Source: a virus
Lineage: Duplodnaviria > Caudoviricetes
Strand: one strand, 5' to 3'
DNA: 64,000 nucleotides
IMG/VR virus record: IMGVR_UViG_3300028364_000013
This document shows positions 993 through 37,236 of this stretch, piece by piece; the first letter of the stretch is position 1; each line of letters starts with the position of its first letter. The notes beneath the pieces are model-generated. The model did no database searches. It had not been told where the DNA came from and worked only from the letters and a program-made list of their open reading frames with translations. The translations under genes were made by a program, and so were the position numbers.

Positions 993-993
993 A

Positions 994-1022
994 TAGAACA
1001 TTTTATAATAATAATCGTATAA
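994..1022 (+). promoter_or_regulatory. class B ECF-like promoter
   Basis: TAGAAC-N16-CGTATAA; ATG of next gene 5 nt after. Confidence 0.7.
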
Positions 1023-1027
1023 AGAAT

Positions 1028-1366
1028 ATGGAAACAGCAAACACAGGAACTGGCTCAGAAACGCTAAGCCAAGAAGAAAAAATTGAAATATTAAAAGCAA
1101 TGTTCTCAACTCTTGAAGTTGATAATAAAGCTGTCTTTACTCAATGGTGTCACGAGGAAATCGAAAGAGGAACTGGAGCGCTGCTTGGAGAGAAGATGAC
1201 AAAGATGAACGAGCAAATGAATTCATTCGTTGCAAAAGCTTATGATAAAGTCGTTAAGGCTGGAACAGAAGTTTACGATAGAACAAATGAAGCGTTTAAG
1301 TTTGCAAATGAAGAAGAAATTGAAAAGTCTCCAAACTCAAGCAGCAGCAAGGGTATTTGGGACTAA
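1028..1366 (+). CDS. hypothetical protein
   Basis: ORF; apparently leaderless from pB. Confidence 0.8.
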   Translation: METANTGTGSETLSQEEKIEILKAMFSTLEVDNKAVFTQWCHEEIERGTGALLGEKMTKMNEQMNSFVAKAYDKVVKAGTEVYDRTNEAFKFANEEEIEKSPNSSSSKGIWD

Positions 1367-1441
1367 AGATATATAACGTCTGTATCTAAGGATGGTCATC
1401 TATGCGTCTCGCAATTGACATCTTTATTTATTGGTTCAAAG

Positions 1442-1469
1442 AAAAAGCCTCCAGCAATGGGGGCTTTTT
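1442..1469. terminator. bidirectional intrinsic terminator
   Basis: AAAAAGCCTCC-AGCAAT-GGGGGCTTTTT between convergent genes. Confidence 0.8.
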
Positions 1470-1474
1470 CGATT

Positions 1475-2260
1475 TTAAGAATAATAAGAGCCGTAAACTT
1501 CAGAATTTAAACCATAATCAATAATCACAACCCTTTCTATTCCACCCTCTTTAACGACACCGTAGGAGCTAAGTCTTGTTAAATCCCCTGCAGGTATTCC
1601 AAAATTTCCTATGTACTGAAATATTCCATACACAAACTCGTCTTCCCACATCTCTTCTACAACAGCTTTATCAATATCTTGCTTATACGAACTTCTGTCA
1701 CCAATCCCATTCGCATCTTCTCCATAATTGTGAATAGCTACAGCAAAATCTCTAAAATCAAATCCAGTAATTTTTTTAAAATCAGCCACTTTAAGCTTTT
1801 GGGCCAATTCCATTTCGGTCCACAAGCTATTTGGGTCATAGTCATAAATTGTAGCCAAAACATCATCTAAGCCTTCTTTTGCAAAGTCAATCTCAACCTG
1901 GTTTTGAGCAATACCTTTTTTGTTCTTAGCAAGCTTTAAAACTTTCTCATCATCAATTTTATATACAATTCTTGACGAACCAGAAGAAATCCTTTGAAGA
2001 AATGCTTCACAATATCTAATTCTCTCTGCAAACGTTGTAAGAGTCTTAAACTCCTCTATCTTAAACATTTCAGGATAACCCTCTTCCAAAGAATCTTCTT
2101 TCACCATGGTTCCAAATTTGTGCTGCCCAGTCGTAGGATAGCTCCTCATCTGTGGGTTGAACTGTGGGTCAAAAAAGTCTGGAAAGTCTTTGTAGTCACT
2201 ATAGACAACAGCTTCAAAAACCTTTTTAAGTTCTTCTTGTATTATTTTTTTTATATTCAT
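1475..2260 (-). CDS. protein kinase-like fold protein
   Basis: SSGSSRIVY Gly-loop, VLK lysine, GDL..S.YG catalytic-like loop, IIDYG (DFG-like). Confidence 0.7.
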   Translation of the reverse strand: MNIKKIIQEELKKVFEAVVYSDYKDFPDFFDPQFNPQMRSYPTTGQHKFGTMVKEDSLEEGYPEMFKIEEFKTLTTFAERIRYCEAFLQRISSGSSRIVYKIDDEKVLKLAKNKKGIAQNQVEIDFAKEGLDDVLATIYDYDPNSLWTEMELAQKLKVADFKKITGFDFRDFAVAIHNYGEDANGIGDRSSYKQDIDKAVVEEMWEDEFVYGIFQYIGNFGIPAGDLTRLSSYGVVKEGGIERVVIIDYGLNSEVYGSYYS

Positions 2261-2342
2261 TGTTCGTTAAACCAGTTATAGTCATCGTAGTCTTCTTCAG
2301 GCTCCATCTATTTTTGTGTTGTCTTAATAAATAGTTTTTATT

Positions 2343-2374
2343 TTTGGAAATTTTTTCATTTATTCGTACCTTCG
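2343..2374 (+). promoter_or_regulatory. Bacteroidota housekeeping-sigma promoter
   Basis: TTTG-N20-TACCTTCG. Confidence 0.6.
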
Positions 2375-2379
2375 CTGCA

Positions 2380-2571
2380 ATGAAAACAAGAGCAAGAAAA
2401 ATGAAGTGGGATAAAGCGGGGGAGCAATTGCATAAAATTTTAACAGAAAGACTTAAGGACCCTAAGTTTGCTAATACAGCTTTTGTAAAAAGAGGTTTGT
2501 GGATGACAAGGCAAAGTCTTATCTTTTCTATTGAGGAGAAAAATAAATACATCTTAAAAAAATATTGCTAA
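2380..2571 (+). CDS. hypothetical protein, C-terminal KYC tag family
   Basis: ORF ends YILKKYC. Confidence 0.7.
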   Translation: MKTRARKMKWDKAGEQLHKILTERLKDPKFANTAFVKRGLWMTRQSLIFSIEEKNKYILKKYC

Positions 2572-2765
2572 TGTTAGAAGAAGACAAAATAAGAAGACTT
2601 CCAGAACATCTCAGAAACAAGAAATTTGTTCACTTGTCATCTAAAGACTTGCGCATAATAGTAAACAACGGGCTTTCAGATTATCAAGTAAATTATTTGA
2701 TTAAAGGGTATGAAAGAAATTACCACGAAATGTTTAGAGAAATTTTTATAAAACATTGCATATGA
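2571..2765 (+). CDS. hypothetical protein, C-terminal KHC tag family
   Basis: TAATG coupling; ends IFIKHCI. Confidence 0.7.
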   Translation: MLEEDKIRRLPEHLRNKKFVHLSSKDLRIIVNNGLSDYQVNYLIKGYERNYHEMFREIFIKHCI

Positions 2766-2992
2766 AAAAGAAGCACAGAAATATAACGATAGATGGGGGC
2801 GACTTATGGGCGTGGTCAGTAATAAGAGGCTATCAAGGAGTTTCAACTATTAAAATATGGAAGGATAAAAAACTTAAGTATGAAAAAAGATATATTTCAG
2901 AACCTGAGTGGGTTAATCCTCCGACTGGAATGCCAACTGTAACTCCAGGGTTAATTTCCAGGTTCATTAAAATACATTTGGTAAATAAATAA
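2762..2992 (+). CDS. hypothetical protein
   Basis: ORF overlapping the upstream stop. Confidence 0.7.
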   Translation: MKKKHRNITIDGGDLWAWSVIRGYQGVSTIKIWKDKKLKYEKRYISEPEWVNPPTGMPTVTPGLISRFIKIHLVNK

Positions 2993-3012
2993 ATTTTAAC
3001 TAAATTTGAGCA

Positions 3013-3238
3013 GTGAAAAAAGCAACACAATTAATGCAAATATTGTCATACGAGCACACCAAGCCCTTGTCGGAGAAGTATGCAAAAAGTTGTGCTCCAG
3101 GTTGCCACAATGGAAGAAAGAATCAAAATAATGATGAGCTTCGGAATGGTTGACAAAGCAGATGAGGCCAATAAATTGTTAATGGAGCTTTTGGTAGCAA
3201 TTAGAGAAGAGTTTATTAACGAACAAAATGGCGAGTAA
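3013..3238 (+). CDS. hypothetical protein, apparent frameshift at A5 run 3084-3088
   Basis: adding one A joins GTG start to a helical C-terminal ORF. Confidence 0.5.
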
Positions 3239-3240
3239 AT

Positions 3241-3537
3241 ATGAGCGAAGATAAAGACGTTGTATACGGAATACATCAAGGCTGCATCTACGAAGGTGGA
3301 GGAGTCAACAAAAACCTCTTCAAAGATAAAGAAGCTGCAGTTGCTGAAGCGACAAGGATTTTTGAAATGGAGATAGCTCGCCAAGAAGAATATAGAAAAC
3401 TTGAAGTAGAAGATGAAGACCATGAAGTTATGTTAAGGCACTATGAAGAGTTTAAGTGGAGAAAATGTGACAAGAGAGAAAATAGATGGCACAACACTGT
3501 TGATGAAATACAAGTTGTAGATTTTACAATTCAATAA
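3241..3537 (+). CDS. hypothetical acidic protein
   Basis: ORF. Confidence 0.75.
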   Translation: MSEDKDVVYGIHQGCIYEGGGVNKNLFKDKEAAVAEATRIFEMEIARQEEYRKLEVEDEDHEVMLRHYEEFKWRKCDKRENRWHNTVDEIQVVDFTIQ

Positions 3538-3538
3538 T

Positions 3539-3868
3539 ATGAACTGGGAAGAACACTTAGAGTAGCTCAACTCCTCAAGCATTGAAGAACTTGATGTTGA
3601 GATTGAAAAAATCATAGAGGAACAAAACGAAGCCGCCAAGACAGCTATGAATCAAATTCACTTCACTCTTAGGCTTGCGAAGACAAAGGAGGAAATACTA
3701 AAGACGGTTGAAGAAATTGAATTAGATTACCACAATACGTCCATGCATTCAATAACTCCTTGGAGACTTAAGAATAGAAAAGAAAAATATAACGAAGACC
3801 CAGAGGTATATGAAAAAGAGTGGAACGAACTCCAGGAATTTGCTGAAAAACTAAGAAAAGAAGCTTGA
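3539..3868 (+). CDS. hypothetical protein with in-frame TAG at 3563-3565
   Basis: ATG 3539 in frame with ORF 3647-3868; one internal TAG. Confidence 0.6.
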
Positions 3869-4071
3869 TATGGTTTATAAAATTGCCTCAATATTTTTTT
3901 TATGTAATCGGAATCGTTGTAATGTTTATTCCAATGATGACTGGAAGGCCAGACTTAAAATACACACTTGTACCTGCAGGTTTTGTTGTGTCAATTATAG
4001 GTCGATTATTAATGGGGTGGGAAAAAGAAAAAGTTAGCAACAAAGATATACTTGATGATGGAGAATTTTGA
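3865..4071 (+). CDS. hypothetical membrane protein
   Basis: two hydrophobic segments. Confidence 0.7.
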   Translation: MIWFIKLPQYFFYVIGIVVMFIPMMTGRPDLKYTLVPAGFVVSIIGRLLMGWEKEKVSNKDILDDGEF

Positions 4072-4114
4072 CTTATAAAAATTTAAGAAATACGTTAACA
4101 CTTATGATGGCCAG

Positions 4115-4366
4115 ATGGGTCACAAGAAATATAGCGTGAAAACAATCATAGACGATTTCCTTTATGGAATAGGTATCTGCTTGGACGAAGAAGGGTTTGA
4201 GAATGCTGACGGATATAGAAAATTTAAAGAAAAACTAATGGAGCACCTGGACGCAGTTCCAGCTTCAGAAGTTCCAAAGAAATGTTATTGCGGACAACCC
4301 GTTGATACAACTAACCAAGATTGCGTTGACTATAACTTATGTTCAGACCACGTAATGGACTCATAA
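4115..4366 (+). CDS. hypothetical protein, C-terminal Cys/His cluster
   Basis: CYCG...C...LCSDH. Confidence 0.7.
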   Translation: MGHKKYSVKTIIDDFLYGIGICLDEEGFENADGYRKFKEKLMEHLDAVPASEVPKKCYCGQPVDTTNQDCVDYNLCSDHVMDS

Positions 4367-4380
4367 AAAAATAAATAATT

Positions 4381-4848
4381 ATGTATATTGATAAAATAGA
4401 AGACATCCCAAGTGATGTAATGGTAGTTCTTAAGAAAGTGTTTGCAGAATACTTTCAAGAGGAAGAAGGTGAGGGCGAAGAAATGACTATCGAGGAGGTA
4501 GTAGAATGCCTAAGAGAAAGTTATGATGACTATGACGAGACTACAGGCTCGTGCTATATCACATGCACATACCACACTACAATAGATGGTTTTAGATTTG
4601 AAGTTGATGGGAGTTCTTACAGAAAAGACCAATCTGTCTGTGATGAAGAAATGGGTGATGGATTTTCAGTAGTCTCTCTTGATGAAGAAAAGAAGAAGAA
4701 AGAGAAGGCTAAAAACGCTAAGAGAGCAAAGTCTGATGAGAACTGGAGAGAGTTCTTTGTTAAAATTGATGGCTATATAACTCCAGAGAAAGCTTTTGAG
4801 CTTTTAAAAGATTATAAGTTTCCAACCAAGTGGAAACAAACAGCTTAG
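4381..4848 (+). CDS. hypothetical protein
   Basis: ORF. Confidence 0.8.
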   Translation: MYIDKIEDIPSDVMVVLKKVFAEYFQEEEGEGEEMTIEEVVECLRESYDDYDETTGSCYITCTYHTTIDGFRFEVDGSSYRKDQSVCDEEMGDGFSVVSLDEEKKKKEKAKNAKRAKSDENWREFFVKIDGYITPEKAFELLKDYKFPTKWKQTA

Positions 4849-4858
4849 TCGAGATAAA

Positions 4859-4887
4859 TAGAACACTTTCTTTTATTTATCGTATAA
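4859..4887 (+). promoter_or_regulatory. class B ECF-like promoter
   Basis: TAGAAC-N16-CGTATAA. Confidence 0.7.
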
Positions 4888-4894
4888 CCTAAGT

Positions 4895-5197
4895 ATGGAA
4901 GCTACTAAAGAATCAGTAATCGAATTTTTGAGAAAAGAATATGAAGAAAGTGTCCTTCAGCATTTAGTTGAAGAGGCAATCTATAATTATCTTGATGAAG
5001 ATTGGGAAGACGAGTATGAAGACGAGCAAGATGCTTATCGAGAAACTGGTCGTGGAGAAGCTGAGTCTGAAGTAAGCACTGACATTCAAAACGAAATCCT
5101 TAAGCAACTTGGGTTTACTCACGAACAATACTGTGAAGTTATTGGCCAAGACGTTTGGGATACAGTCACAGAAGTTTACGAATTTTTAGAACACTAA
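4895..5197 (+). CDS. hypothetical acidic protein
   Basis: ORF after pB. Confidence 0.8.
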   Translation: MEATKESVIEFLRKEYEESVLQHLVEEAIYNYLDEDWEDEYEDEQDAYRETGRGEAESEVSTDIQNEILKQLGFTHEQYCEVIGQDVWDTVTEVYEFLEH

Positions 5198-5199
5198 AC

Positions 5200-5649
5200 A
5201 TGAAAGATAACGTTAAAGACGCAATCGAAGAATACCAGTGCCCAGGATGCATGGCTGGAAGCGACATTACATGCTTCAAGAAAGATGACGAAGGATTAAG
5301 TTCAGCTTGTGGAAATCACAGAGCTGGAACTGCAGCAGTTGGCATAGGTAAGTTTTTTCTTGGAATGCCGAAAGGATTCAATAGACTTGGAGCAGGATTT
5401 GGCGGAGACAAAAATCTTAGAATTGATATGTTCGAAACTTATGATGATAGCTGGGCAAAAAATGATGATGCAGGTTATAAGAAGTGGAACATCCCAGTGT
5501 GGAAGTACAAAAACAAGAATGGACACACCATGTTAAGAGGTTTGTCTCCAAGAAACAACAGCTCTTTCTTGCATGTAATTCTTGAGGATTGCATGGATAA
5601 ATTTGATTGTCTTGAGATTACTCAAGATGATGTAGATGGAATGGATTAA
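5200..5649 (+). CDS. hypothetical Cys-containing protein
   Basis: ORF from ATG 5200. Confidence 0.8.
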   Translation: MKDNVKDAIEEYQCPGCMAGSDITCFKKDDEGLSSACGNHRAGTAAVGIGKFFLGMPKGFNRLGAGFGGDKNLRIDMFETYDDSWAKNDDAGYKKWNIPVWKYKNKNGHTMLRGLSPRNNSSFLHVILEDCMDKFDCLEITQDDVDGMD

Positions 5650-5651
5650 TT

Positions 5652-5981
5652 ATGAAGCACTTTAGCGGAAAAGAACTTGAACCAAGTAAGTTTTACCAAA
5701 TGGGCGACTTCATTGTAGAATTCATTAAGGACACTGGTGAATTGATAGAATCCTATCCAGGAAAGTTTTCTGGCGTTTATCTATGCAAGTTAACTAACTT
5801 CACAAATAGTTCTAAACACAACTTAGGAGAATTAGAACGTGAAATGAAACTGGTGAAAAATCAAAACTACCCGTGTTTTCAAGAAATAAGCAAAGAAGAT
5901 ATTCAAAAATATATTGACTCTAAAGAAAGAGGCATTAAGTTAGAGCAGGAAAGAATTTGTTTTTTAAAGAAATTTCTATAA
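5652..5981 (+). CDS. hypothetical protein
   Basis: ORF. Confidence 0.75.
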   Translation: MKHFSGKELEPSKFYQMGDFIVEFIKDTGELIESYPGKFSGVYLCKLTNFTNSSKHNLGELEREMKLVKNQNYPCFQEISKEDIQKYIDSKERGIKLEQERICFLKKFL

Positions 5982-6132
5982 AAAAATAATACAATTTTTT
6001 CATCGCACAGTCATTGCCGACAGGCGGATTCCGACAAAATTTTTTCACCATTAATTAAATTTAAAAATATTCTAATTAAATTTCTTCTTATTTATTGTAT
6101 ATTTATTATTAAGACTTATAATAAGCAAATAG

Positions 6133-6342
6133 ATGAGCAAGGAAGATGCGTGTTTTATCCACAACGGAGAAATATACTACATAGTTGGAGCAGCCGAACG
6201 AGATATTGAGAGGTACCTCGAAAATATTGTTGACTTTTATGAGACTGACGAATATCAATCGCTCAATCTAATAAGAATAAAGGCTCAAAAATACCTTATA
6301 GATAGACAAATTCAGCTAATAATGAGCAAATATTGCATTTAA
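6133..6342 (+). CDS. hypothetical protein, C-terminal KYC tag family
   Basis: ends QLIMSKYCI. Confidence 0.7.
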   Translation: MSKEDACFIHNGEIYYIVGAAERDIERYLENIVDFYETDEYQSLNLIRIKAQKYLIDRQIQLIMSKYCI

Positions 6343-6344
6343 AA

Positions 6345-6376
6345 TTTGCAAGGGTTAAAAAGTTTCTATAGATTTG
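6345..6376 (+). promoter_or_regulatory. Bacteroidota housekeeping-sigma promoter
   Basis: TTTG-N20-TAGATTTG. Confidence 0.75.
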
Positions 6377-6406
6377 TAGTCTAATTTAATTACAAAACAA
6401 AAATTT

Positions 6407-7162
6407 ATGGAAACGAAAAATGATACTGCACAAGATGCAGCATTCGCAAAGATGTCCGACATTAAAATCTGGATTTCTACACAGTATGAAAAGTTCGTAC
6501 TAAGCGAATTCAACAGAGACCCGTCTCACTACAAAAAAGTTAAAGAGTCAATCGAAGCAAACGATTATACTCAATATCAACCAATCCTTGTTAACAAGCA
6601 AATGGAGATTGTCGATGGACAAAACAGATACCTTGCATGTAAAGAGCTTGGCCTTCCAATTCATTTCATCGTATCAGAAGATATTCATATCTATGCTGCT
6701 GCAGACATCAACAGAGCTGCTAAGAACTGGAACGCTATGGATTATGCTCGTCACTATGCTAAGAGAGGGAAAGACTCTTACATCATGCTTTTAGACCTTT
6801 GTGCTAAATACGACCAGAGAATTTCTGTAGTTGGTGCATTCGGTAAAATCTCAAAGAACGCACGTTCTCACTCACACAACATTAAACAAGGTTCTTTCGA
6901 ATTTAGAGAAGACATCGACATTGACGATTTCTTTACTCACATGGCTATCTTCGAAAATTACTATGATTTCGCTAAGAAAGAAAAGTTTGTTAAGGCAATG
7001 CTTAAACTTTATATGCACCCTAACTATGTTCATGAGAAAATGACTACCAAGCTTAAACTTAACTCAGGTATCGTTCGTGAACAATCTAAAGTTGGAGACA
7101 TGGTCAATGAGCTTGTTAAGCTATACAACTTCCACACAAGAACTGGTAAAATACACTTCTAA
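6407..7162 (+). CDS. ParB/sulfiredoxin-like N-terminal domain protein
   Basis: PILVNKQMEIVDGQNRYLACKELGLP motif. Confidence 0.75.
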   Translation: METKNDTAQDAAFAKMSDIKIWISTQYEKFVLSEFNRDPSHYKKVKESIEANDYTQYQPILVNKQMEIVDGQNRYLACKELGLPIHFIVSEDIHIYAAADINRAAKNWNAMDYARHYAKRGKDSYIMLLDLCAKYDQRISVVGAFGKISKNARSHSHNIKQGSFEFREDIDIDDFFTHMAIFENYYDFAKKEKFVKAMLKLYMHPNYVHEKMTTKLKLNSGIVREQSKVGDMVNELVKLYNFHTRTGKIHF

Positions 7163-7415
7163 GTGGGAAGACTTGTCTTAAATATAAGATTCGTCCAACA
7201 TGGAGAAAAACATGATTACACCATCCAGAGGAAAACTTTCTTTGGATGGCGTAGTTATAGATACGAAGTTGGCGGTTGTGGCGGAGGCTCTGTCTTATAT
7301 GAATACACTGATACAGATAAATCTGCCCTCCTCGACAAAAATAATCGAATCCATATACTTGACAAAGAAAGAATTTGTCAAAGTAATTGAGCATCCAATG
7401 ATTAAAAAATACTAA
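7163..7415 (+). CDS. hypothetical protein, apparent frameshift at A5 run 7337-7341
   Basis: ORFs 7163-7390 and 7200-7415 join at GACAAAAATA. Confidence 0.55.
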
Positions 7416-7416
7416 G

Positions 7417-7746
7417 ATGAACGAAGAAGAATTTTTGGAGAAAACCAGAGAACATCGTGAATATAAAAGGCTCCTGGAATACCAAGATGCTGAACAGGTT
7501 GACGCTGCCATTCTTAGAATTAAAAACGGCTACGGCATCACTGAAAGCAATTACGAACTTAGATTCTATGTTGAGTCAGAAAGTATTACAGAGGTAAACA
7601 TTCACTTCAGAGATTTCATGGCTGACATCTCTGCTTTGTTCGAAAAATACAAGGGAAAAGGAATCACAGAAGGAGACCTTGACAGAAAAGGAAGCACTCG
7701 CCCTGCAGCGCTTGACATTGTTACAGATACTTTAAATAAAATATAA
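7417..7746 (+). CDS. hypothetical protein
   Basis: ORF. Confidence 0.75.
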   Translation: MNEEEFLEKTREHREYKRLLEYQDAEQVDAAILRIKNGYGITESNYELRFYVESESITEVNIHFRDFMADISALFEKYKGKGITEGDLDRKGSTRPAALDIVTDTLNKI

Positions 7747-8273
7747 TGACAACACTAAGATTAGATGATAAAATATTTACAGCTGAATACATTGAGACGA
7801 TTTCAGAATTGGAGGAGTATATTCCAGAATTGGAGACAAAATCTTTTTTAGATATAACAAAAGACATCATCAATCCAAAAAAGAAAACCGTTCACGTACA
7901 ATTCACAATTCAACTTGTGTCTGGTGAAAAATTGACTAAAAGATTCGGAGCAGGAGGTTTATCTGAAGAAGTGAAGAGCGTTGCTAATGAAAAGTATCAA
8001 GAAATATCTAAAGATTGCGGTATTGCTGAACTCATCAGAATCAAAGAGGAGAAAGGCGAAATGATAGTAGCCCAAGAATACGATAGAGCCGCTAAACTTC
8101 GTGATGATGAAAAGAAAGCTTGGGATAATGTAGAGGGGAAAAACTTCTACGAGAGAATCAAAAAAGAAGTCCTTACAGACATCGTTATGAAAAATCTAAG
8201 AGATATTGCCGAAGAGAAGAGAACGTGGCTCCAGGAGATTGTAAACAGCACCAAAGCGCCAATTAATATATGA
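7746..8273 (+). CDS. UVR (UvrB/C motif) domain protein
   Basis: KEEKGEMIVAQEYDRAAKLRD matches the UVR pattern. Confidence 0.6.
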   Translation: MTTLRLDDKIFTAEYIETISELEEYIPELETKSFLDITKDIINPKKKTVHVQFTIQLVSGEKLTKRFGAGGLSEEVKSVANEKYQEISKDCGIAELIRIKEEKGEMIVAQEYDRAAKLRDDEKKAWDNVEGKNFYERIKKEVLTDIVMKNLRDIAEEKRTWLQEIVNSTKAPINI

Positions 8274-8506
8274 AAGAACCACACAATAGCTTTTTAGATT
8301 ACTTTCTAAAGATACTCCCAGGAATCCTTGGGATGATACTTCTGGTAATCGTAATTAACGCAATACACGTAACCAAGCTATCAACAAGACTCGACAGTCC
8401 AATGGAGCCAACACTTGAGATTTCCGCAGAAGGAGATACAACTTATATTTACGAAATGCATAACAACGATACAACAGATGTTACATTTCACATAGACTTT
8501 AAATAA
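8270..8506 (+). CDS. hypothetical membrane protein
   Basis: single TM. Confidence 0.7.
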   Translation: MKEPHNSFLDYFLKILPGILGMILLVIVINAIHVTKLSTRLDSPMEPTLEISAEGDTTYIYEMHNNDTTDVTFHIDFK

Positions 8507-8948
8507 TGGGATATTTTTTATAGCAGTGATTGCATTTGCAATTGGATACATAATCGGAATTAAGTCTAAGGCTATTGCCAAGATTAAAGCCAGAGAAAAA
8601 ATTAAGGAAGAACCCAAGTTTAACATTAATGAATTTATTCGTGATGAAGGAGGTGCAATCAAAAAGGTAATCAAAGGTAGAGTTGCTCCACCACCTCCGC
8701 CACCATCAAGGATAATTAAAGAAGGCACAATGCCAACTCCACCAAAGAAGAAAGTTGAGCATGTTAAACCTGGCATCACATACTATAGAGGAACATTTAC
8801 AAAAGTCAACAGATGCGGTAACTGCGAAGCGATAGGAATGCAAAGTGATATGTGGGCTCACAATCCTTGCCCTAAGTGTGGTGGTAATGTTAAATATTAT
8901 GGCGCTGGCAAATGGGAAAATAGCAGCTGGGTAATGTCAAAGGTCTAA
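8506..8948 (+). CDS. membrane-anchored Pro-rich protein with C-terminal zinc ribbon; apparent frameshift at T6 run 8514-8519
   Basis: N-terminal TM, PPPPPP, CGNC...CPKC. Confidence 0.65.
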
Positions 8949-9008
8949 AATAAAAAAAGTCACTCTAAATTTAGAATGACCGTTTTTACGTAAAAATTTT
9001 TTGACCTC

Positions 9009-9569
9009 TTAATCGTTTTTAAGCTTCAGCTTCTTAACGTCATCACCGTCATAGTAAACAGTGTCTATTTTATAAACTTTCCTGTCAATCACAGTGTCTT
9101 TGTGGACTATGTTGTATACAATAGAGTCTTTCTCAACAATATTCCACTGTACAGAATCTTTGTAAATATAGTTGTAAATAATTGAGTCAAGAACTATTTC
9201 GCTAATCGTCATGCCAGCGTCAATTATAATAACACCCTTGGCATCTTGAGCATCCTTCAATAGCTTCTGCGCATCTTTCACTTTCTTTTTAAGTTTCTCA
9301 ACCTCTTCTACTGTAAGGTTATCGTTTAGGACGATGTTGTTCAAGCTGTCAATCTCACTGCTGTACATATTTCTCCTGGTATCAAGGTCATGAAGCATCT
9401 CTGTTAGCAAGCTGTCGCTCTCGTGCTGCAACTCTCCTAACTTTTTTATATCCTCCTTATCCTTCTGGTAAATCTTTGTGAAATCTTCTGACTTGCACAT
9501 TTTAACCATGAACATCAGCGCCAATCCTGATACCGCTATTAATATAGCTTTCTTATATTCTTTTTTCAT
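9009..9569 (-). CDS. TM plus coiled-coil protein, possible spanin-like
   Basis: N-terminal TM, coiled coil, DS/DT-rich tail; function inferred. Confidence 0.55.
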   Translation of the reverse strand: MKKEYKKAILIAVSGLALMFMVKMCKSEDFTKIYQKDKEDIKKLGELQHESDSLLTEMLHDLDTRRNMYSSEIDSLNNIVLNDNLTVEEVEKLKKKVKDAQKLLKDAQDAKGVIIIDAGMTISEIVLDSIIYNYIYKDSVQWNIVEKDSIVYNIVHKDTVIDRKVYKIDTVYYDGDDVKKLKLKND

Positions 9570-9574
9570 ATTTT

Positions 9575-9796
9575 TTAGTGATTGTGAAGCTCTTTGAGTG
9601 ACTCAATGAACTTCTCGTTTAATTCTTTGTAATCCTCTTTGAGGGTTTTAATGTCCTCTTGCAATGTCTCCACTTGTGACGTTAAGGTACTCTTATTATC
9701 GTAATAAAGGTAACCCACCGCCATTAGGGACATGAAGAGTAATGCCACTATCGGATTCTTTACGAATTCCTTAAATGATACTCCTGGTAATGCCAT
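9575..9796 (-). CDS. small membrane protein, possible holin-like
   Basis: MALPGVSFKEFVKNPIVALLF TM plus coiled coil. Confidence 0.55.
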   Translation of the reverse strand: MALPGVSFKEFVKNPIVALLFMSLMAVGYLYYDNKSTLTSQVETLQEDIKTLKEDYKELNEKFIESLKELHNH

Positions 9797-9883
9797 AATT
9801 GTTTTGTTTTTGTGTTGTTTTGTTATATTTAATAAATATACATTCTTTTTGAAAATTGACCATTTTTTCATAACTTTGAGCAC

Positions 9884-10147
9884 ATGAACGAATCGAATAA
9901 AACAGAGATTGTCTGGAACCAGACTGGTACCAATATTGTGGGATTTGTGGTTGACGGAGAAAATATGGGAGCCGAAGCATTCAATGAGATGATGCAAATA
10001 GCAGGACTTTCAACAATTAGCATAAGCACGCAGCTAACAAATCTTAAGGAGAGAATTACGCATGAGCGAACAATTACAGAAAAATTATTGACGCTCGATA
10101 CAATAATAGGAGTTATGATGAAGAAAATAAAAATAGACCACTGCTAA
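9884..10147 (+). CDS. C-terminal [HY]C tag family protein
   Basis: ends KKIKIDHC. Confidence 0.7.
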   Translation: MNESNKTEIVWNQTGTNIVGFVVDGENMGAEAFNEMMQIAGLSTISISTQLTNLKERITHERTITEKLLTLDTIIGVMMKKIKIDHC

Positions 10148-10485
10148 TGACAAAAGAAGAGATAAAATTGCCAACAGAAGAATACACCTATGAATTCCAT
10201 GGCACCGAGTTCTCAATTAAGCCTGTTTCACAAGAAACAAGAGAGCTGTTGGAACTGTATGGCATTGACATAGAAGCAGCTCTCACAAGCATTCTTAAAA
10301 AAGAAATTGATAAGGAAATAGCTAAAACAAAAACAATTGAACTTAGCACTCTTTCTCTGGAGGGAAGAGTAGAGAAGATGAAGTCAATGCTTGATACAGA
10401 TATTCCAGACTTTCTTAGGAAAGATATTCTGGCAAACCTCTTGACTGTGATGGAGAAGAAAATAAGAAAGGACTACTGTGAGTGA
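10147..10485 (+). CDS. C-terminal [HY]C tag family protein
   Basis: ends KKIRKDYCE. Confidence 0.75.
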   Translation: MTKEEIKLPTEEYTYEFHGTEFSIKPVSQETRELLELYGIDIEAALTSILKKEIDKEIAKTKTIELSTLSLEGRVEKMKSMLDTDIPDFLRKDILANLLTVMEKKIRKDYCE

Positions 10486-10573
10486 ACAGAATATATATGA
10501 CCCCAACGAGTTCAAGCCCAAGAAATGCATCCACCTAATGCACTATAACATAAAAGAGAAGCATTGTGAGTAA
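10478..10573 (+). CDS. C-terminal [HY]C tag family peptide (31 aa)
   Basis: GTG start; ends NIKEKHCE; below ORF-track cutoff. Confidence 0.55.
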   Translation: MSEQNIYDPNEFKPKKCIHLMHYNIKEKHCE

Positions 10574-10856
10574 GGATAATAAAAGAACGTTTGTCGTGTA
10601 TCCAAATACAGTTAGCGATGAGGATATGGAACGGTTTCTTGCAAGTTTGAGGAAATCGCTTAGAATGCCACCCATTCATATGAGGGACATTTTTATTGAT
10701 ACCAAGGATAGCATTGAGAATAATGTTGAATCTCATAAGAGATATTCAGATGCTTACTTTAAACAAGGAGAGTATAAAGATGAGTTTACCATGTATCACC
10801 TGGAGAAATATTTGTATTACATGAATTTATTAATTTTAAAAAAACACTGTGCATAA
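10566..10856 (+). CDS. C-terminal [HY]C tag family protein
   Basis: ends LILKKHCA. Confidence 0.75.
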   Translation: MSKDNKRTFVVYPNTVSDEDMERFLASLRKSLRMPPIHMRDIFIDTKDSIENNVESHKRYSDAYFKQGEYKDEFTMYHLEKYLYYMNLLILKKHCA

Positions 10857-11106
10857 AGGAAAAGAATTTATACCGCCAGGGATTATAACTCCAAAAGGAG
10901 AACTTATATATTTAAACTTCCAAGTTACTTCTACTGAAAAAATCATAGAACAGACTTTTTCCCTGGAGGACAACATTCGTCACTACGACATTAATTATGA
11001 ATGCAACAAAGACTCCATGTTATCTCTTGGGAGAGCATGTGACGCACTTATGAAATCAATTTACTACAGGATGAAAAAGATACTTAGAGACCATGGCGAA
11101 TATTAG
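10849..11106 (+). CDS. C-terminal tag family protein
   Basis: ends RMKKILRDHGEY. Confidence 0.7.
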   Translation: MHKGKEFIPPGIITPKGELIYLNFQVTSTEKIIEQTFSLEDNIRHYDINYECNKDSMLSLGRACDALMKSIYYRMKKILRDHGEY

Positions 11107-11299
11107 AAGAAGGAGGGGAGGCAAGGTCACCGAGAACCAAATTATTAACTGGGAAACCGTCCATCAAGAATATTTAGACAATCTCTACGATAATACCATT
11201 GAAATGTCATATGAAGAATGTGCTGAAATGTCAGTGTTTTCAATATTTAAGGTAATACAACTTAGAATGATAAAAATAAAACAAGACCACTGTGGATGA
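11093..11299 (+). CDS. C-terminal [HY]C tag family protein
   Basis: ends RMIKIKQDHCG. Confidence 0.7.
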   Translation: MANIRRRRGGKVTENQIINWETVHQEYLDNLYDNTIEMSYEECAEMSVFSIFKVIQLRMIKIKQDHCG

Positions 11300-11531
11300 T
11301 TTTAGAAATGATATAAACGAATTGGAATATAGGACCAAAATTTATGACCTTGATTATGTTAAGTACTGCAAGGCTATGGATTGCGGATATGTAAGTCACA
11401 TTAGAAGTGACGGTTCAGTTCAGAATAGACTTGGCTCCAAGAGAGGGTGGGAAGAAACCGCACTCTTCTGTGTAACAAATTCAATTGAATATAGGATGAT
11501 GTTAATTAAATTGAAGCATTGTGATAAATAA
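11292..11531 (+). CDS. C-terminal [HY]C tag family protein
   Basis: ends RMMLIKLKHCDK. Confidence 0.7.
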   Translation: MDDFRNDINELEYRTKIYDLDYVKYCKAMDCGYVSHIRSDGSVQNRLGSKRGWEETALFCVTNSIEYRMMLIKLKHCDK

Positions 11532-11706
11532 CCTAACAAAAGAAGAAGTCAATGGAGTTCTCAAGCAACAAGGTTTGACGCTGGAGCAATTGTTGAATCT
11601 AATGGAAAGTAATTTAAGAATCATGGGAGAAGACAAACAAGAGGAGTCTCACTATTGGATTATTAAATTGCATTACCATAAAATATATAGAAAACACTGT
11701 GAGTAA
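11521..11706 (+). CDS. C-terminal [HY]C tag family protein
   Basis: ends KIYRKHCE. Confidence 0.7.
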   Translation: MINNLTKEEVNGVLKQQGLTLEQLLNLMESNLRIMGEDKQEESHYWIIKLHYHKIYRKHCE

Positions 11707-11887
11707 GATTACAAGAGAAGAAATAATTAAGTGGGAAACCAGGTGCAACCAATCAATAGGAGATTATGAAACTGAAGTCCATTTCTGGGGCCTCAGCACA
11801 GGTACTCATGAACTCGTTAGAGCTTATCGTTTCCTGGATTTGGCTGTCAGGTGTAGGCGTGAAAAAATAATACAAGATTACTGCTAA
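11699..11887 (+). CDS. C-terminal [HY]C tag family protein
   Basis: ends EKIIQDYC. Confidence 0.7.
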   Translation: MSKITREEIIKWETRCNQSIGDYETEVHFWGLSTGTHELVRAYRFLDLAVRCRREKIIQDYC

Positions 11888-12055
11888 TGAATGAAGATAT
11901 AGAACTCTGGGAATTTAAGTACGAAGAATATACTCGAACATTTGAAGAGAAAAAAGATGGGCCTATCAGAAACTTCGTTGCTGCACCTTGCATATAAGTG
12001 TCTTGTCATTTCTCACATACATAGAATGAAGAAACTATTCAAAGACCACTGTTAA
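11887..12055 (+). CDS. C-terminal [HY]C tag family protein, apparent frameshift at A6 run 11950-11955
   Basis: shifted frame ends RMKKLFKDHC. Confidence 0.55.
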
Positions 12056-12076
12056 CTTGTTCCCAAAATTTACAAT

Positions 12077-12540
12077 AAAAAATTTGGGAAAAAATTTTTA
12101 AGGATTCACTTTTTGTAAGTCCATAGGAAAAAGGGGCACCCCCTTATACGGACCCCCTACCCCCCAGAGAAAGTTTCTTGTTCGTCATGACGAATGAACA
12201 ATATCTTTGAGTGCGGCAAATAGAACACCTAATCGCAGCGCTTTATGCGGCAAATAATTCCGATGGTCATTCCGCTCGTTAAAGCTTTGCTATCAGTGTT
12301 GTGTAGAGGTTTTTTCTCAGAGAGATTCCGATGGTCATTCCGAGCGTAATTGGTCCAGAAATTAGCTTAAAAAATTTGGGAAAAAATTTTTAAGGATTGA
12401 CTTATTAACAAAGAGAAAACTTTTCCTCGTCATGATGAAAGAACTATTTATTCCGAACGTTACGGCAGTTAGCTATCCTAATCGCAGTAAAGGATGCGGC
12501 AAATAAGTATTAAGAAAATTCCGATGGTCATTCCGAACGT
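12077..12540. repeat. imperfect tandem repeats in non-coding region
   Basis: AAAAAATTTGGGAAAAAATTTTTAAGGATT at 12077 and 12369; ATTCCGATGGTCATTCCG at 12257, 12325, 12518; GCGGCAAATA x3; CCTAATCGCAG x2. Confidence 0.9.
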
Positions 12541-12856
12541 ATTATAAGCCCAGGAGCTTATATTGTCCTTTATAAGCAATATAGCTTATATTCACAATTC
12601 TCAAAGACATTCTATAGGACATTTTGTCCTTGACGGGATTGGTTGAGAAAAATAATAATAAACCTGGAGCAACAATGCGTATGATAGGGAATATACGTTG
12701 GTTGAGAATATTGTAAAAAAAATGGGGAAAAATTCGTGAGAGGTCTTGGACCCCCTATGGAGGGGCGGCTTTTTTAGGGGCTTATTTTCCTTCCGAGCCT
12801 TAAATAGACCCCTTAAATAAGAGCCTATCTGTAAGGGGCTTAAACAGGGTAGGGGG

Positions 12857-12997
12857 TTAGTACCTCTTACCTTTGTGCTTTGCCTTTCGTGTGTACGTCT
12901 TCTTAGACTTGTGTACGCTATGCTTCATTGCATCTTGTATCTCACCTTGCGTCAATTGAATGACTTCAAACTTTGGTGCTTTAATATCTTTGCTCAT
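12857..12997 (-). CDS. small basic protein (46 aa)
   Basis: MSKDIKAPK...VHKSKKTYTRKAKHKGKRY after a minus-strand pA. Confidence 0.7.
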   Translation of the reverse strand: MSKDIKAPKFEVIQLTQGEIQDAMKHSVHKSKKTYTRKAKHKGKRY

Positions 12998-13046
12998 AAT
13001 TTCTACTTGTTTGGTTACATTAATATAACGACAGGAATTTAAAAAG

Positions 13047-13307
13047 TTACAATTTTAATTTTACAAGCATTATCTTTGTATATTCATCAAGAATATCACC
13101 AGCGCTTTTAGAGACAAGAATGTTTTTGTTTTTGTTTTTTAAGGTATATACCCTGTCGGCATAGAATCCAGGCTGCTTGTTAATATTAATATTGGTTACT
13201 GTTACTTCACCGTCAGCTGAATGGTACTCTTCAAAGCAAATGACTCCTGAATCTCTTACAGTATTCTCCTGAATTTTGTTCTTTTGCTCTTGCGTTAAAT
13301 CAATCAT
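13047..13307 (-). CDS. hypothetical protein
   Basis: ORF after minus-strand pA. Confidence 0.75.
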   Translation of the reverse strand: MIDLTQEQKNKIQENTVRDSGVICFEEYHSADGEVTVTNININKQPGFYADRVYTLKNKNKNILVSKSAGDILDEYTKIMLVKLKL

Positions 13308-13369
13308 CTTTTAATGTTTTTATTGGTTACATATATATAACGACCAAAATTCAAAAAGTTACAAAGATA

Positions 13370-13397
13370 TAGAACATTAATTTTTATTTGCGTATAA
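13370..13397 (+). promoter_or_regulatory. class B ECF-like promoter at left island edge
   Basis: TAGAAC-N15-16-CGTATAA, back-to-back with a minus-strand pA. Confidence 0.65.
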
Positions 13398-13491
13398 GAA
13401 AGTAAGCGAACTTTCTAAGGTAGAAATTTGATTTTGTAACTTTTTAAAAACATATCGTTATAAGTATGTAACCAATAATAAAACAAACATT

Positions 13492-14061
13492 ATGAAAAAT
13501 TTAGTAAGAATTACAAGAGACCAAGCAGTAACAATGTTCACTAACTACAAAAAAGAAGTTTCGGCTTCGGGTGTAGCATTTTCAAACATTGCATACTTAG
13601 TAGACGAGTCAAAGTCTAAAACTGTAAAAGGTAAGAAAGTTTTACAGAAAATGGTTGAAACGAACGCAACAATAGGGAGTGATTATGCAAAGAAAGTTAA
13701 CAAAATTCTTGACAGAGAGGGAAAGGAAATTGTTTTTGAAGCGCAACCAATGAGAGGTAAAGATTATGTTTCAGAAGGAAACCCAGTGTGTATGGACACA
13801 AAGACACAAGAAAAAAGATACTTAGTATTCATTGTTGAAGGACATTCAAAGCCACAAACACAATTGATTTTAGATGGAAAGTTAGTTGACCGTAAAGATG
13901 TTTGGAATGATACTTACATTACACCTGCGGGATTGAAACCAAATGCAGTTGCAGGACGTGGAACGATTAACGAAGAAAATAACTTCTTTTTCAGAACGCT
14001 TGACTTTAACAACTTAATTTCTTTCAATATGAATGGTAATATGTACCTAATTGAGGGATAA
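13492..14061 (+). CDS. hypothetical protein
   Basis: ORF after pA. Confidence 0.85.
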   Translation: MKNLVRITRDQAVTMFTNYKKEVSASGVAFSNIAYLVDESKSKTVKGKKVLQKMVETNATIGSDYAKKVNKILDREGKEIVFEAQPMRGKDYVSEGNPVCMDTKTQEKRYLVFIVEGHSKPQTQLILDGKLVDRKDVWNDTYITPAGLKPNAVAGRGTINEENNFFFRTLDFNNLISFNMNGNMYLIEG

Positions 14062-14079
14062 GAAACGAAACAACAACGA

Positions 14080-14108
14080 GGGGGGCGAATTGCTCCCCTT
14101 TTTTTTTA
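14080..14108 (+). terminator. intrinsic terminator
   Basis: GAGGGGGGCG-AAT-TGCTCCCCT plus T-run. Confidence 0.7.
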
Positions 14109-14129
14109 TAAACTTAGAAACTCTCCCTA

Positions 14130-14348
14130 ATGGCAAAGATAGTATTATTAGAAGATGCAAAAAAGATGATTGGCGGACTTGTTAAGGCAGTTGGTACGTG
14201 TGGCATTGGCGATGGCGTTACTGTGCATGGAATACTATTAGAACTCTCCCCAATACCTATTGTATTGGTCTTAAAAGGTAACGGGCATAGCCAGCCTTAC
14301 TCAGTAGATAAAAACACCTTAGAACGCATTGAAACTCTCCCTAATTAG
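14130..14348 (+). CDS. hypothetical protein
   Basis: ORF. Confidence 0.65.
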   Translation: MAKIVLLEDAKKMIGGLVKAVGTCGIGDGVTVHGILLELSPIPIVLVLKGNGHSQPYSVDKNTLERIETLPN

Positions 14349-14405
14349 ATTGTAACTTTTTGAATTGCTATCGTTATATCTATGTAACCAATAAAGATAA
14401 ACAAA

Positions 14406-14648
14406 ATGGCAATAGGATTCAACACACCGTCAAAAAGACAAGCAGAAGAGTTAGAAGGACAAAACTCTCCCCAACCTCAACAAATGGGCGAAATGCCTAC
14501 GGGTCACTTACAAGCTCAGACAATACAAAAAATGCAAGCCTTGGGCGATATGATTTGCTCACCAAATTTTGCAACTCTCCCCGTGGCACAAAAAGAAATG
14601 ATGTTAATTGATTTTGCATATTTCACAAACCTTGCAAACGTTTTGTAA
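14406..14648 (+). CDS. hypothetical protein
   Basis: after pA; stop is the TAA of the next pA. Confidence 0.75.
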   Translation: MAIGFNTPSKRQAEELEGQNSPQPQQMGEMPTGHLQAQTIQKMQALGDMICSPNFATLPVAQKEMMLIDFAYFTNLANVL

Positions 14649-14698
14649 CTTTTTAAATTCATTTCGTTATACACTTGTAACCAATAAAGACAAACAAA

Positions 14699-14962
14699 AT
14701 GGCAAAGCATTATAAGTACGAAAAATTAATGGAGCATAACCCGACAAGCTACGGAGCAATGACAAACTCAAAGGGTCAAGAGATAGAGTTCTTTGAGCAC
14801 CCAATGCAAGGAGATATGTCAGTTGTTATATGTGTATGCCACAAATTAGAGAAAGCGGCAGATAGCACGTTTTTTGAAACTGATGACATGGAAGCAGAGC
14901 ATGGAGAATATGAGCCAAGTTTTCAAAATGGAAAATTATATATTGGAGATTTTGAAGCTTAG
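14699..14962 (+). CDS. hypothetical protein
   Basis: after pA. Confidence 0.8.
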   Translation: MAKHYKYEKLMEHNPTSYGAMTNSKGQEIEFFEHPMQGDMSVVICVCHKLEKAADSTFFETDDMEAEHGEYEPSFQNGKLYIGDFEA

Positions 14963-15019
14963 ATAATTGTAACTTTTTGAAATCGTATCGTTATACACTT
15001 GTAACCAAAAACAAAAGAC

Positions 15020-15412
15020 ATGAAAATTATTTTAGATAAAGTAGAAGTTTTAGAGATGGTGCATAACGCACTTTGCAACGGAGGGTTAAGCGAACTCGCA
15101 ATGTGTTCGGTTCGATTAAACATAGTTCAAGAGGACTATGAGGAAGCGAAAAACACTTGGAACGCAGAGAATGACAATAGCCCGTGTCGTGAGGACATTT
15201 ACGCTCAAATTCTTAAAAGCGGAAAGCCTTTACAGTTTTTTGACTATGAGGGGGATGAAGCGTTAGAATTCACGCTTGAGGGTGCGATAGAAGCCCTTAG
15301 CAATGAAGATGCGTCTGAAATAGTGTTGACCTACAAAGAAGAGGGGGATGATGCGATAACGGCTACTGAATTGCTTCAGCACTGTTTATATGGAGAAGTA
15401 ATTTTTGGATAA
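15020..15412 (+). CDS. hypothetical protein
   Basis: after pA. Confidence 0.8.
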   Translation: MKIILDKVEVLEMVHNALCNGGLSELAMCSVRLNIVQEDYEEAKNTWNAENDNSPCREDIYAQILKSGKPLQFFDYEGDEALEFTLEGAIEALSNEDASEIVLTYKEEGDDAITATELLQHCLYGEVIFG

Positions 15413-15593
15413 GATGGTTGATAAAATTTATTACATAACAAACCCTTATAGTGATGAGGGTAGAACCACCAAAAACTTTGACATTCCAAAGTGTGGAAAA
15501 GAAAAGCGCAGAGAGAAGAGAAAAGCGCAGAGAAAGAAATTGTAACTTTTTGAAATCGTATCGTTATATGTATGTAACATAAAAACAACGACA

Positions 15594-16172
15594 ATGAAAG
15601 ACTTAACAAAAGAAATGCACTTCGAGGAAAACTGTAAGACAACCCTTGGAGAACTTGAAAGATTAGCAAACAGATTACTTGCAACGATTTGGACAATTGA
15701 TATTTACAGTTTCAAAGAAGCAAGTGTTATTAACTTAAAAGAATTGGGGTGGAAGTTTGAGTATAATTCAAGAAAAAGAGCAGCAGGTCTTTGTAATTAC
15801 AGAAACAAAACGATTTACCTTTCAAAGTATTTGGTAACTCAAAACTTAAGCAAAGGATTAGAATTTGAAAACACATTGCGTCACGAATTAGCGCACGCAC
15901 TTGATGGAGCAATGGGAGGAAGAAACCACCACAACAACGTGTGGAAAGCAATAGCAAGAAAAGTACTTTGCACCGCAGAAAGATGCTACAAGTCGGAGGA
16001 CATTAGCGACACTCAAAGTAAATACACATTAGTTTGTGAAAATGGATGCGGGAAAAAAAGTGCGAGTCACAAAAAGAAGAAAAGAATTAGTGCTTGTGGA
16101 AAATGTTGTAACGAACACAACAACGGAAGATACACCGAAAAGTATGCACTAACACAGATACAGAACTATTAA
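15594..16172 (+). CDS. SprT-like zinc metalloprotease domain protein
   Basis: RAAGLC, TLRHELAH (HExxH), HNNVWKAIA, C-terminal Cys cluster. Confidence 0.85.
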   Translation: MKDLTKEMHFEENCKTTLGELERLANRLLATIWTIDIYSFKEASVINLKELGWKFEYNSRKRAAGLCNYRNKTIYLSKYLVTQNLSKGLEFENTLRHELAHALDGAMGGRNHHNNVWKAIARKVLCTAERCYKSEDISDTQSKYTLVCENGCGKKSASHKKKKRISACGKCCNEHNNGRYTEKYALTQIQNY

Positions 16173-16289
16173 GAGATTATTGTTTGTGTGGTTACGACAA
16201 TAAGGGGAGGCTGAAAAGTCTCCCTTTTCTTTGTTTGCCCCGAACGAGCGAAGCGTTGTAACTTTTTAAATAACCATCGTTATATGAAT

Positions 16290-37082: not shown

Positions 37083-37159
37083 TATTTTTATTATAAATAG
37101 ATAAAAAATATAAAATCGAACCCCAATTTCACAATTAAGTTTATAGGGCTATTAACTTG

Positions 37160-37233: not shown

Positions 37234-37236
37234 GTT

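Follow-up and report, generated by a model that had tools for sequence, protein, structure and literature searches.

A fast-changing family of small phage proteins sharing a C-terminal helix that ends in His-Cys

The locus examined here raises the question of why a run of small phage genes should end in nearly the same peptide, and why the codons of that peptide should also supply the start of the next gene. The genes, ten open reading frames (ORFs) designated o1 to o10, occupy positions 9884-12055 of a 64,000-nucleotide stretch of viral DNA (Duplodnaviria, Caudoviricetes; hereafter the window, meaning this stretch at its full length), which is part of the IMG/VR record IMGVR_UViG_3300028364_000013, estimated to be 65% complete. 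A preliminary description had proposed for them either a docking or targeting tag shared by a polymorphic set of effectors, or the scar of a gene-accretion mechanism inserting at a fixed junction. The present analysis confirms what had been observed and supports the interpretation in part. As detailed below, the array, in a very large lake-water phage, is a multigene family in a hyperplastic and probably translationally coupled setting. This family is undescribed and fast-changing, and its members have little in common apart from a C-terminal helix with His-Cys at its end.

All ten ORFs lie on the plus strand, abutting or overlapping their neighbours, and both they and the endings listed for them in the preliminary description were found again (Table 1). 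In nine of the ten, [HY]-C is followed by 0-2 residues, o5 alone ending in DHGEY, and the same ending is carried by three further ORFs of the window (at 2380, 2571 and 6133), which had been mentioned as extra copies and are real. In the 142-kb virus record containing the window, 2906 stop-to-stop ORFs reach a length of 25 aa or more; [HY]C followed by 0-3 residues ends only 32 of them, and 12 of the 32 belong to the family and lie on the array strand (o5, with its DHGEY, being left out of this count). The background rate is thus about 0.7% of ORFs, at which nine out of ten consecutive ORFs would not acquire the ending by chance.

The conserved segment is longer than the tag of 6-8 aa first described. 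When 90 distinct members were compared, namely those of the window and of the contigs L005, L009, L010, L011, L012 and L015 together with five further database proteins, it was found to span about 21 aa, with the pattern A-x3-L-x2-h-I-x-h-R-h-[EK]-K-I-x-[KR]-[DKR]-H-C. At position 0 of this tail, H is present in 87% and Y in 13% of members, followed by C in 94% at +1; upstream of it, I occurs in 84% at -4, K in 54% at -5 and R in 42% at -8 and, further up, I in 70% at -11, L in 69% at -15 and A in 44% at -19. Such a pattern is that of a putative helix of 21 residues, along which the hydrophobic positions form a heptad-like stripe.

A lack of protein-level conservation of the tag in homologues had been named beforehand as an outcome that would refute the interpretation; this was examined, and the tag proved to be conserved. 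L005, a sister phage, carries a 14-gene array, L009, L010, L012 and L015 have arrays of 2-11 tail-bearing genes, and in L011 (JGI, Joint Genome Institute, 3300033153 Ga0366824_1000436, a 64-kb contig) about 49 of 59 consecutive small genes bear the tail over 16 kb (locus 1017-16183), a count made within the examined locus, past whose end the array runs. A profile of the last 58 aa, compared without word filter with 1.84 billion cluster representatives, returned 25 hits at E < 0.001, one of them a false positive (a tetratricopeptide repeat, TPR, protein) and about 10 of them new members of less than 50% identity, all ending in [KD]-H-[CT] plus 0-5 residues. In all, the tail is conserved in at least seven other metagenomic contigs, on bodies that are far more divergent. 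The tail is a protein feature, since distant homologues whose DNA differs keep it, since its Cys may be written as TGT or as TGC (the two are about equally frequent in the tails, as are CAT and CAC for His), and since genes without a downstream neighbour bear it too.

Regarding the bodies, the earlier statement that the N-termini are unrelated holds pairwise and fails at the level of family profiles. Most single members of the window have no detectable similarity past their last 12-22 aa; BLASTP with the last ~12 residues removed gave five significant pairs among 49 L011 members, and without tails a handful among those of the window and L005. Nonetheless, o6 and o9 have an N-terminal motif in common, o5 is a member of the best-conserved subfamily (..LEEQIxHYxxKY..), and relatives of o2 differ in their N-termini while having the same 75 C-terminal residues and tail. 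Moreover, tail-stripped profiles aligned in register with hhalign, both for subfamily A (o5-like) against subfamily B (L005-3473-like; probability 86%, P 5e-6) and for the 49 L011 bodies against A and B combined (probability 94%, P 2e-7). The stripped profiles share a first helix, s-l-E-E-x-I-x-x-Y-e, then a loop that varies and, after it, the opening part of a second helix, A-x3-L-x3-I. The AlphaFold2 prediction for the 58-aa domain is a hairpin of two helices, with a predicted local distance difference test score (pLDDT) of 89; in o4 the same hairpin is predicted at the C-terminus (H47-67/H72-95), with pLDDT ~81-86 there. As the stripped profiles of three subgroups match each other, we conclude that the array represents one diverged paralogous family built on a predicted hairpin of ~55 aa, with the tag as its best-kept end.

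Comparison of the window with its L005 orthologues gave ratios of nonsynonymous to synonymous substitution rates (dN/dS) of 0.20-0.41 (0.28 for o4, 0.29 for o7 and 0.28 for o8) and a pooled ratio of the corresponding polymorphisms (pN/pS) of 0.34, the o1 fragment, truncated in L005, being the exception to this range. These values indicate purifying selection on the array genes.

Family and fold searches gave little else. In Pfam-A and PHROGs no hit at E < 0.001 was obtained for the ten window ORFs and ten longer relatives, except for the capsid fragment of the o2 subfamily described below; blastn against GenBank phages gave no match, word-indexed homologue searches with family alignments returned training members only, and no relatives turned up when viral contigs were scanned for o2, for the 186-aa gene upstream and for a degenerate tag pattern, whose four hits were due to chance. 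Neither a profile search of Protein Data Bank (PDB) sequences nor Foldseek against viral and PDB libraries produced a significant match, in the latter case because the hairpin is too generic.

Considering that the tail is constant, the bodies are hypervariable, copies number from ~10 to ~50, chimeras and pseudogenes occur, selection is purifying and an early promoter is probable, the array resembles an arms-race accessory repertoire, and for this reason our best guess is that the tail is a constant docking helix on diversifying early proteins. A signal for packaging or targeting, which would bring the proteins into the capsid to be injected along with the DNA, like the capsid-targeting sequence of the internal proteins of phage T4, is a weaker alternative, which we regard as unlikely. 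T4 internal proteins are products of late genes, and their N-terminal capsid-targeting sequence is cleaved by the prohead protease. The parallel is that in both cases polymorphic small proteins from a hypervariable locus share one short constant peptide. Capsid association could also be read into o2, whose residues ~32-58 (nt ~10240-10320) are similar to a conserved stretch in the interior of gp23, the major capsid protein of T4-type phages. This segment, ~45-60 aa corresponding to positions ~151-210 of the 376 of PF07068, is fused to the His-Cys tail and is carried by o2, P0019, P0002, P0003 and L005:1759-2187. The PF07068 score of P0019, 32.6 bits (E 7.7e-8), is above the threshold of 24.4 bits, P0003, P0002 and o2 scoring 17.4, 15.4 and 12.4 (E 0.1), respectively, and P0019 has 40% identity with the capsid protein of a Flavobacterium phage over residues 303-347 of the latter. 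With so small a part of the profile matched, o2 was rejected as a T4-type capsid protein, which would be full-length and of HK97 fold, and is better described as containing a captured fragment of one. On the contrary, the constant peptide of the array is C-terminal, not N-terminal as capsid targeting in T4 has it, and is predicted to lie within a folded hairpin; it contains no protease-site motif, and some 50 cargo species would be unprecedented.

Expression timing also speaks against packaging, the sole promoter-like site being of host type and suggesting early, not late, expression. Start regions throughout the record are poor in G and, between -14 and -3, rich in A, and a Shine-Dalgarno-like motif is present at only 11 of 242 starts of the 142-kb record; A-rich, G-poor starts without Shine-Dalgarno have been described for Bacteroidia (PMC6847099), from which we infer a Bacteroidota host. 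The window has 12 matches to the promoter consensus of this group, TTTG-N17-21-TAnnTTTG, where 4.2 would be expected. One of them stops 5 nt ahead of the o1 ATG, implying a leaderless or nearly leaderless first cistron, and it is kept upstream of the o1 orthologue in L005. Such a host-type promoter before o1 suggests that the array is an early operon read by the host polymerase. The weak hairpin after o10 may mark the end of this operon. As an intrinsic terminator it was rejected, its energy being no better than that of shuffled sequences (z -0.36). In the non-coding stretch past the array, a 36-nt direct repeat, 97% identical, is found at 12076-12111 and 12368-12403.

The junctions between genes bring in another explanation, namely that the ending is mainly a nucleic-acid signal, formed by the initiation region and start of the next gene, with conservation of the peptide as a by-product. 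Their description stands in full: GTG within TGTG over the Cys codon is present at 10478, 10566, 10849, 11292, 11521 and 11699, ATG within CAT-GGC at 11093 (where the Cys-to-Gly change of o5 creates the start of o6), and TAATG at 10147 and 11887. As o3, o5 and o9 have no usable ATG, their GTG starts are needed. In a survey of 93 junctions after tail-bearing genes, the next start was GTG at exactly +1 relative to the Cys codon in 33 and ATG at exactly +5 in 35, that is, 68 of the 93 together, and it fell within -3 to +20 nt of this codon in 87. Overlaps of 4 nt were the most frequent (25 junctions), followed by those of 8 nt (21), 1 nt (17), 11 nt (9) and 14 nt (7), so that 42 of the 93 overlap by 4 or 1 nt.

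Several of these features favour a nucleic-acid signal. The position of the next start is fixed, TGT goes with GTG starts in 34 of 37 cases, and all losses of the Cys (H-G twice, Y-T once) make an ATG at that very spot. Synonymous sites of the tail are enriched in A relative to gene bodies (ATA 64% versus 43% for Ile, AAA 73% versus 61% for Lys, AGR 98% versus 80% for Arg), and where the next start is GTG, an A is brought to -3 and to -6 by the codons for His and Asp/Lys, both positions being positive determinants of initiation when occupied by A (PMC6847099). Nevertheless, over 14 tail codons the information amounts to 8.9 bits at the first codon position, 11.1 at the second and 4.8 at the third, the first two being far more informative than the third, as for a protein. 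The Cys is kept equally at those ATG-type junctions that use TGC, where C stands at -3, as well as on terminal genes; o10, last in the array and with no gene downstream, and the ORF at 6133, with no overlapping neighbour, retain the full tail, whereas many overlapping pairs outside the family in the same phages lack it (as in L012 genes 456-3188). Conservation also reaches 21 aa upstream in a heptad pattern. GAC precedes His in 31 of 34 cases, a bias rejected as an RNA signal, since GAT-CAY would form GATC, which is totally avoided. A primarily nucleic-acid origin of the ending is thus improbable, a shade more so than packaging.

GATC is in fact absent from the 142-kb record (~340-450 expected), as is CCGG (37-126 expected), and CTAG is found 12 times against ~240 expected, which looks like restriction-site avoidance.

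The fixed +1/+5 start and the mild synonymous A-enrichment point to translational coupling as a second constraint. In our reading, the junction would be inherited with each duplication and kept by this second, weaker constraint. The co-directional, overlapping genes have the stop/start overlaps of an operon coupled by termination-reinitiation, a mechanism described for overlapping gene pairs (PMC6728339, PMC10666635), and by analogy the downstream cistrons are probably translated in this way. Like those pairs, the array has same-strand ATGA or TAATG overlaps; unlike them, it has a second class, with GTG inside the penultimate or an earlier codon and overlaps of 8, 11 or 14 nt set by a conserved amino acid, and its host group does not use Shine-Dalgarno sequences. 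A polyprotein made by readthrough or frameshifting was discarded, considering that the frame shifts both ways (+1 at TGTG, +2 at TAATG) and every ORF is ended by a stop.

How the array changes was assessed against L005, with which the window is collinear at 79-95% DNA identity apart from three indel events. In the first, ~490 bp are absent from the window and two adjacent L005 genes are fused in frame into o2, with the breakpoint at an 8-9 nt microhomology inside an ORF body. In the second, ~2 kb (~6.5 genes) are absent, leaving the 31-aa chimera o3, which takes its N-terminus from L005 gene 2180 and its tail from L005 gene 3986; here too the breakpoint lies inside an ORF body, at a 4-6 nt microhomology. 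The third concerns o6, which is extra in the window and absent from L005, and its right-hand crossover lies within the tags, the L005 sequence being that of an o5-like tail as far as R-M-K-K-I and o6-like from there on (K-Q-D-H-C-G). This crossover indicates that ordinary homologous or unequal recombination adds or removes whole genes; tag recombination moves whole genes, yet it is neither the sole nor the main route. Heads and tails are exchanged between genes as well, as deduced from L005:1351-1752 (P0004), in which the first 36 residues are as in o2 and the C-terminal 97 are different and lack the His-Cys tail. Duplicated pairs, adjacent or nearby, are observed in L011 (10152/10376, 11444/11680 and 10862/12273).

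Decay is seen at both ends of the array. The o1 orthologue in L005 meets a stop after 39 aa. At the other end o10, listed in the preliminary description as one of ten ORFs, is split into 11887-11997 and 11942-12055 by a run of A6 at 11950-11955 where L005 and run X8 have A8; the L005 orthologue is intact, at 56 aa. Identical DNA, this frameshift included, was assembled from three other samples, and its presence in four independent assemblies argues against a sequencing error. The runs holding window DNA are lake-water and salt-lake metagenomes; contigs of four sequencing runs were of the window type and the L005 type only, and the window's proteins were also found on contigs of up to 364 kb.

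These events bear on the second of the original proposals, a junction targeted by site-specific cassette insertion, integron-like or similar. A related 25-39 nt sequence does stand at every gene boundary, and in the whole-gene indel of o6 the crossover lies within tags. However, the other two of the three indels break in ORF bodies at microhomologies, no attC-like inverted repeats or stem-loops were found at the array junctions, no integrase or recombinase gene is adjacent to the array, and the tag DNA of different copies is only 67-76% identical, with varying synonymous sites. The idea of an insertion scar left by a site-specific process is accordingly not supported, and we consider site-specific insertion very improbable.

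A closer parallel is found in the hyperplastic regions of T4-type phages, where clusters of small ORFan genes are shuffled as modules by means of promoter-early stem-loop (PeSL) elements (PMC2839356, PMC4122927). The array is like them in being a small, non-essential ORFan cluster with insertion, deletion or replacement of whole genes between close relatives. Of the three indels against L005, one has its crossover in the repeated boundary element, as in recombination between short boundary repeats, and two lie at microhomologies inside ORF bodies. The array is unlike those regions in that their cassettes of unrelated genes are separated by an intergenic promoter and stem-loop, whereas its genes overlap, its repeat is coding and its members form one family. 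Instead of an intergenic promoter and terminator stem-loop, the junctions have overlaps of 1-14 nt, no inverted repeats and no excess of promoter or terminator matches. As to the ORFs being no genes at all, and the array a non-coding repeat or an annotation artefact, the lack of a known family is a point in favour, yet this reading is most improbable in view of the dN/dS values, abutting open frames over more than 2 kb, protein-level conservation across contigs with different DNA and the 3-nt periodicity of that conservation.

The favoured account of a docking helix can now be put together. The array is a multigene family specific to its lineage, whose products are phage proteins of only 55-140 aa. 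Each has a predicted C-terminal hairpin of ~55 aa whose second helix bears the heptad-like stripe and ends, five residues or fewer from the C-terminus, in the near-invariant K-I-x-[KR]-[DKR]-H-C, the parts before the hairpin being highly divergent and in some cases derived from other genes, as is the capsid-protein fragment of o2. Family size changes through tandem duplication, unequal recombination of the tail-coding repeats and microhomology-mediated in-frame deletions, and close relatives accordingly have 10, 14 or ~50 copies. The array would probably be transcribed as one operon, an early unit, from the Bacteroidota-type promoter before o1. Each downstream cistron would be translated by termination-reinitiation, with its start locked to the Cys codon, either as GTG in TGTG or as ATG 5 nt past the first base of that codon, and the Lys, Ile and Arg codons of the tail would double as the A-rich leader, free of Shine-Dalgarno, that is used throughout this phage. 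The constant tail would act as a common docking helix tying the diversifying bodies to one partner, its His and Cys possibly forming part of a shared metal site, and the proteins might serve host takeover or counter-defence in an arms race. Taken as a whole, this account is considered moderately probable.

Several observations weigh against it. A tail-stripped profile built from outside members matches only o5 in the window, which makes descent of the bodies of o1, o2, o4 and o6-o9 an extrapolation, and some bodies may have been captured, not duplicated. The AlphaFold2 models were built on shallow, tail-anchored alignments, and so support the fold and do not prove it. The Pfam, PHROG, PDB-sequence and fold searches gave no structural or family match pointing to a function, and orthologous tails are only slightly better conserved than the bodies (88% versus 79% identity). 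Finally, the putative promoter is a consensus match and the terminator a weak one, and expression of the array genes is deduced from their sequence.

Two further systems deserve comparison. Poxviruses and African swine fever virus possess multigene families (MGFs), the so-called genomic accordions, tandem paralogues with rapid copy-number variation that are thought to have a role in host range or counter-defence. The array likewise consists of tandem paralogues varying quickly in number, and differs in belonging to a phage, in its far smaller proteins and in a conservation almost wholly placed in the 21-aa C-terminal helix. WXG100/LXG proteins, which carry C-terminal export signals, likewise combine a small helical hairpin and a conserved C-terminal motif with a variable rest, and were the nearest clusters by the language-model features of the ESM Atlas, with a score of 0.83 that corresponds to noise level. 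Membership of this group was rejected on account of the absence of a WXG motif, of matches to PF06013 or PF04740 and of a type VII secretion context, and the likely host of the array, a Bacteroidota, is a further difference. Thus, the array works like parts of T4-type hyperplastic regions, T4 internal proteins, MGFs and coupled operons and is a member of none of them; its repeat is coding and not intergenic, its constant peptide is C-terminal within the fold, and it has no curated family entry.

Elsewhere in the window, positions 6407-7162 encode a protein of ~250 aa with a ParB-like D-G-Q-N-R motif and no Pfam hit, whose counterparts (L011:250-1020 and L012:456-1205) place it upstream of the arrays in three phages and which has distant relatives in phages of Flavobacterium, Streptococcus and Enterococcus. 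For a 387-aa ORF at 47558-48721, tblastn gave numerous jumbo-phage matches, the best of them in uncultured 735-kb phages; as the annotation of some is HNH or another endonuclease, the ORF probably encodes a homing endonuclease. An ECF sigma factor of the phage is encoded at 51013-51711. Three tRNA genes lie on the minus strand at 37159-37569, two adjacent ones for tRNA-Glu(UUC), one of them 85 nt long, and a third for tRNA-Met.

Table 1. Array genes, outlying family members and candidate transcription signals in the window.
Feature	Position	Strand	Length	Start or junction	Tail or remarks
Promoter-like site	9848..9878	+			Bacteroidota housekeeping type: TTTG, 19 nt, TAACTTTG; consensus match
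o1	9884..10147	+	87 aa	TAATG junction into o2	..MMKKIKIDHC
o2	10147..10485	+	112 aa		..MEKKIRKDYCE
o3	10478..10573	+	31 aa	GTG start in TGTG	..NIKEKHCE
o4	10566..10856	+	96 aa	GTG start	..LLILKKHCA
o5	10849..11106	+	85 aa	GTG start	..RMKKILRDHGEY (..ILRDHGEY); Gly in place of Cys
o6	11093..11299	+	68 aa	ATG start	..RMIKIKQDHCG
o7	11292..11531	+	79 aa	GTG start	..RMMLIKLKHCDK (..IKLKHCDK)
o8	11521..11706	+	61 aa	GTG start	..HKIYRKHCE
o9	11699..11887	+	62 aa	GTG start, frame without ATG; TAATG junction	..EKIIQDYC
o10	11887..12055	+			..RMKKLFKDHC; last gene; frameshift in A-run 11950-11955
Weak hairpin, then A/T run	12054..12096	+			after o10
Outlying member	2380..2571	+		TAATG junction	..KYILKKYC
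Outlying member	2571..2765	+		ATGA-type overlap with following ORF	..REIFIKHCI
Outlying member	6133..6342	+		following gene starts 65 nt on, no overlap	..QLIMSKYCI

A bolder version of the docking idea would make the His-Cys tail an address label, in which a single machine of the phage or the host recognises the K-I-x-x-x-H-C helix, perhaps through a metal site, and so handles from 10 to more than 50 effectors. We hold this to be possible, with considerable doubt. If true, it would amount to an effector-repertoire system of phages, in which some effectors derive from captured fragments such as that of the capsid protein, and the array would be a nursery where any in-frame fusion to the tail gives a new deliverable protein.

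More generally, a block of opaque small ORFan genes in large phages, ~50 of them in one relative, is here linked by one invariant C-terminal helix. This gives an experimental handle, since the 21-aa peptide can serve as bait and its His and Cys can be mutated, and the gains, losses and chimeras of the array constitute a natural series for the diversification of accessory repertoires in phages. The locus is also a neat example of a short sequence constrained jointly by protein and translation initiation, in a host group without Shine-Dalgarno sequences and with GTG starts built into a conserved Cys codon.

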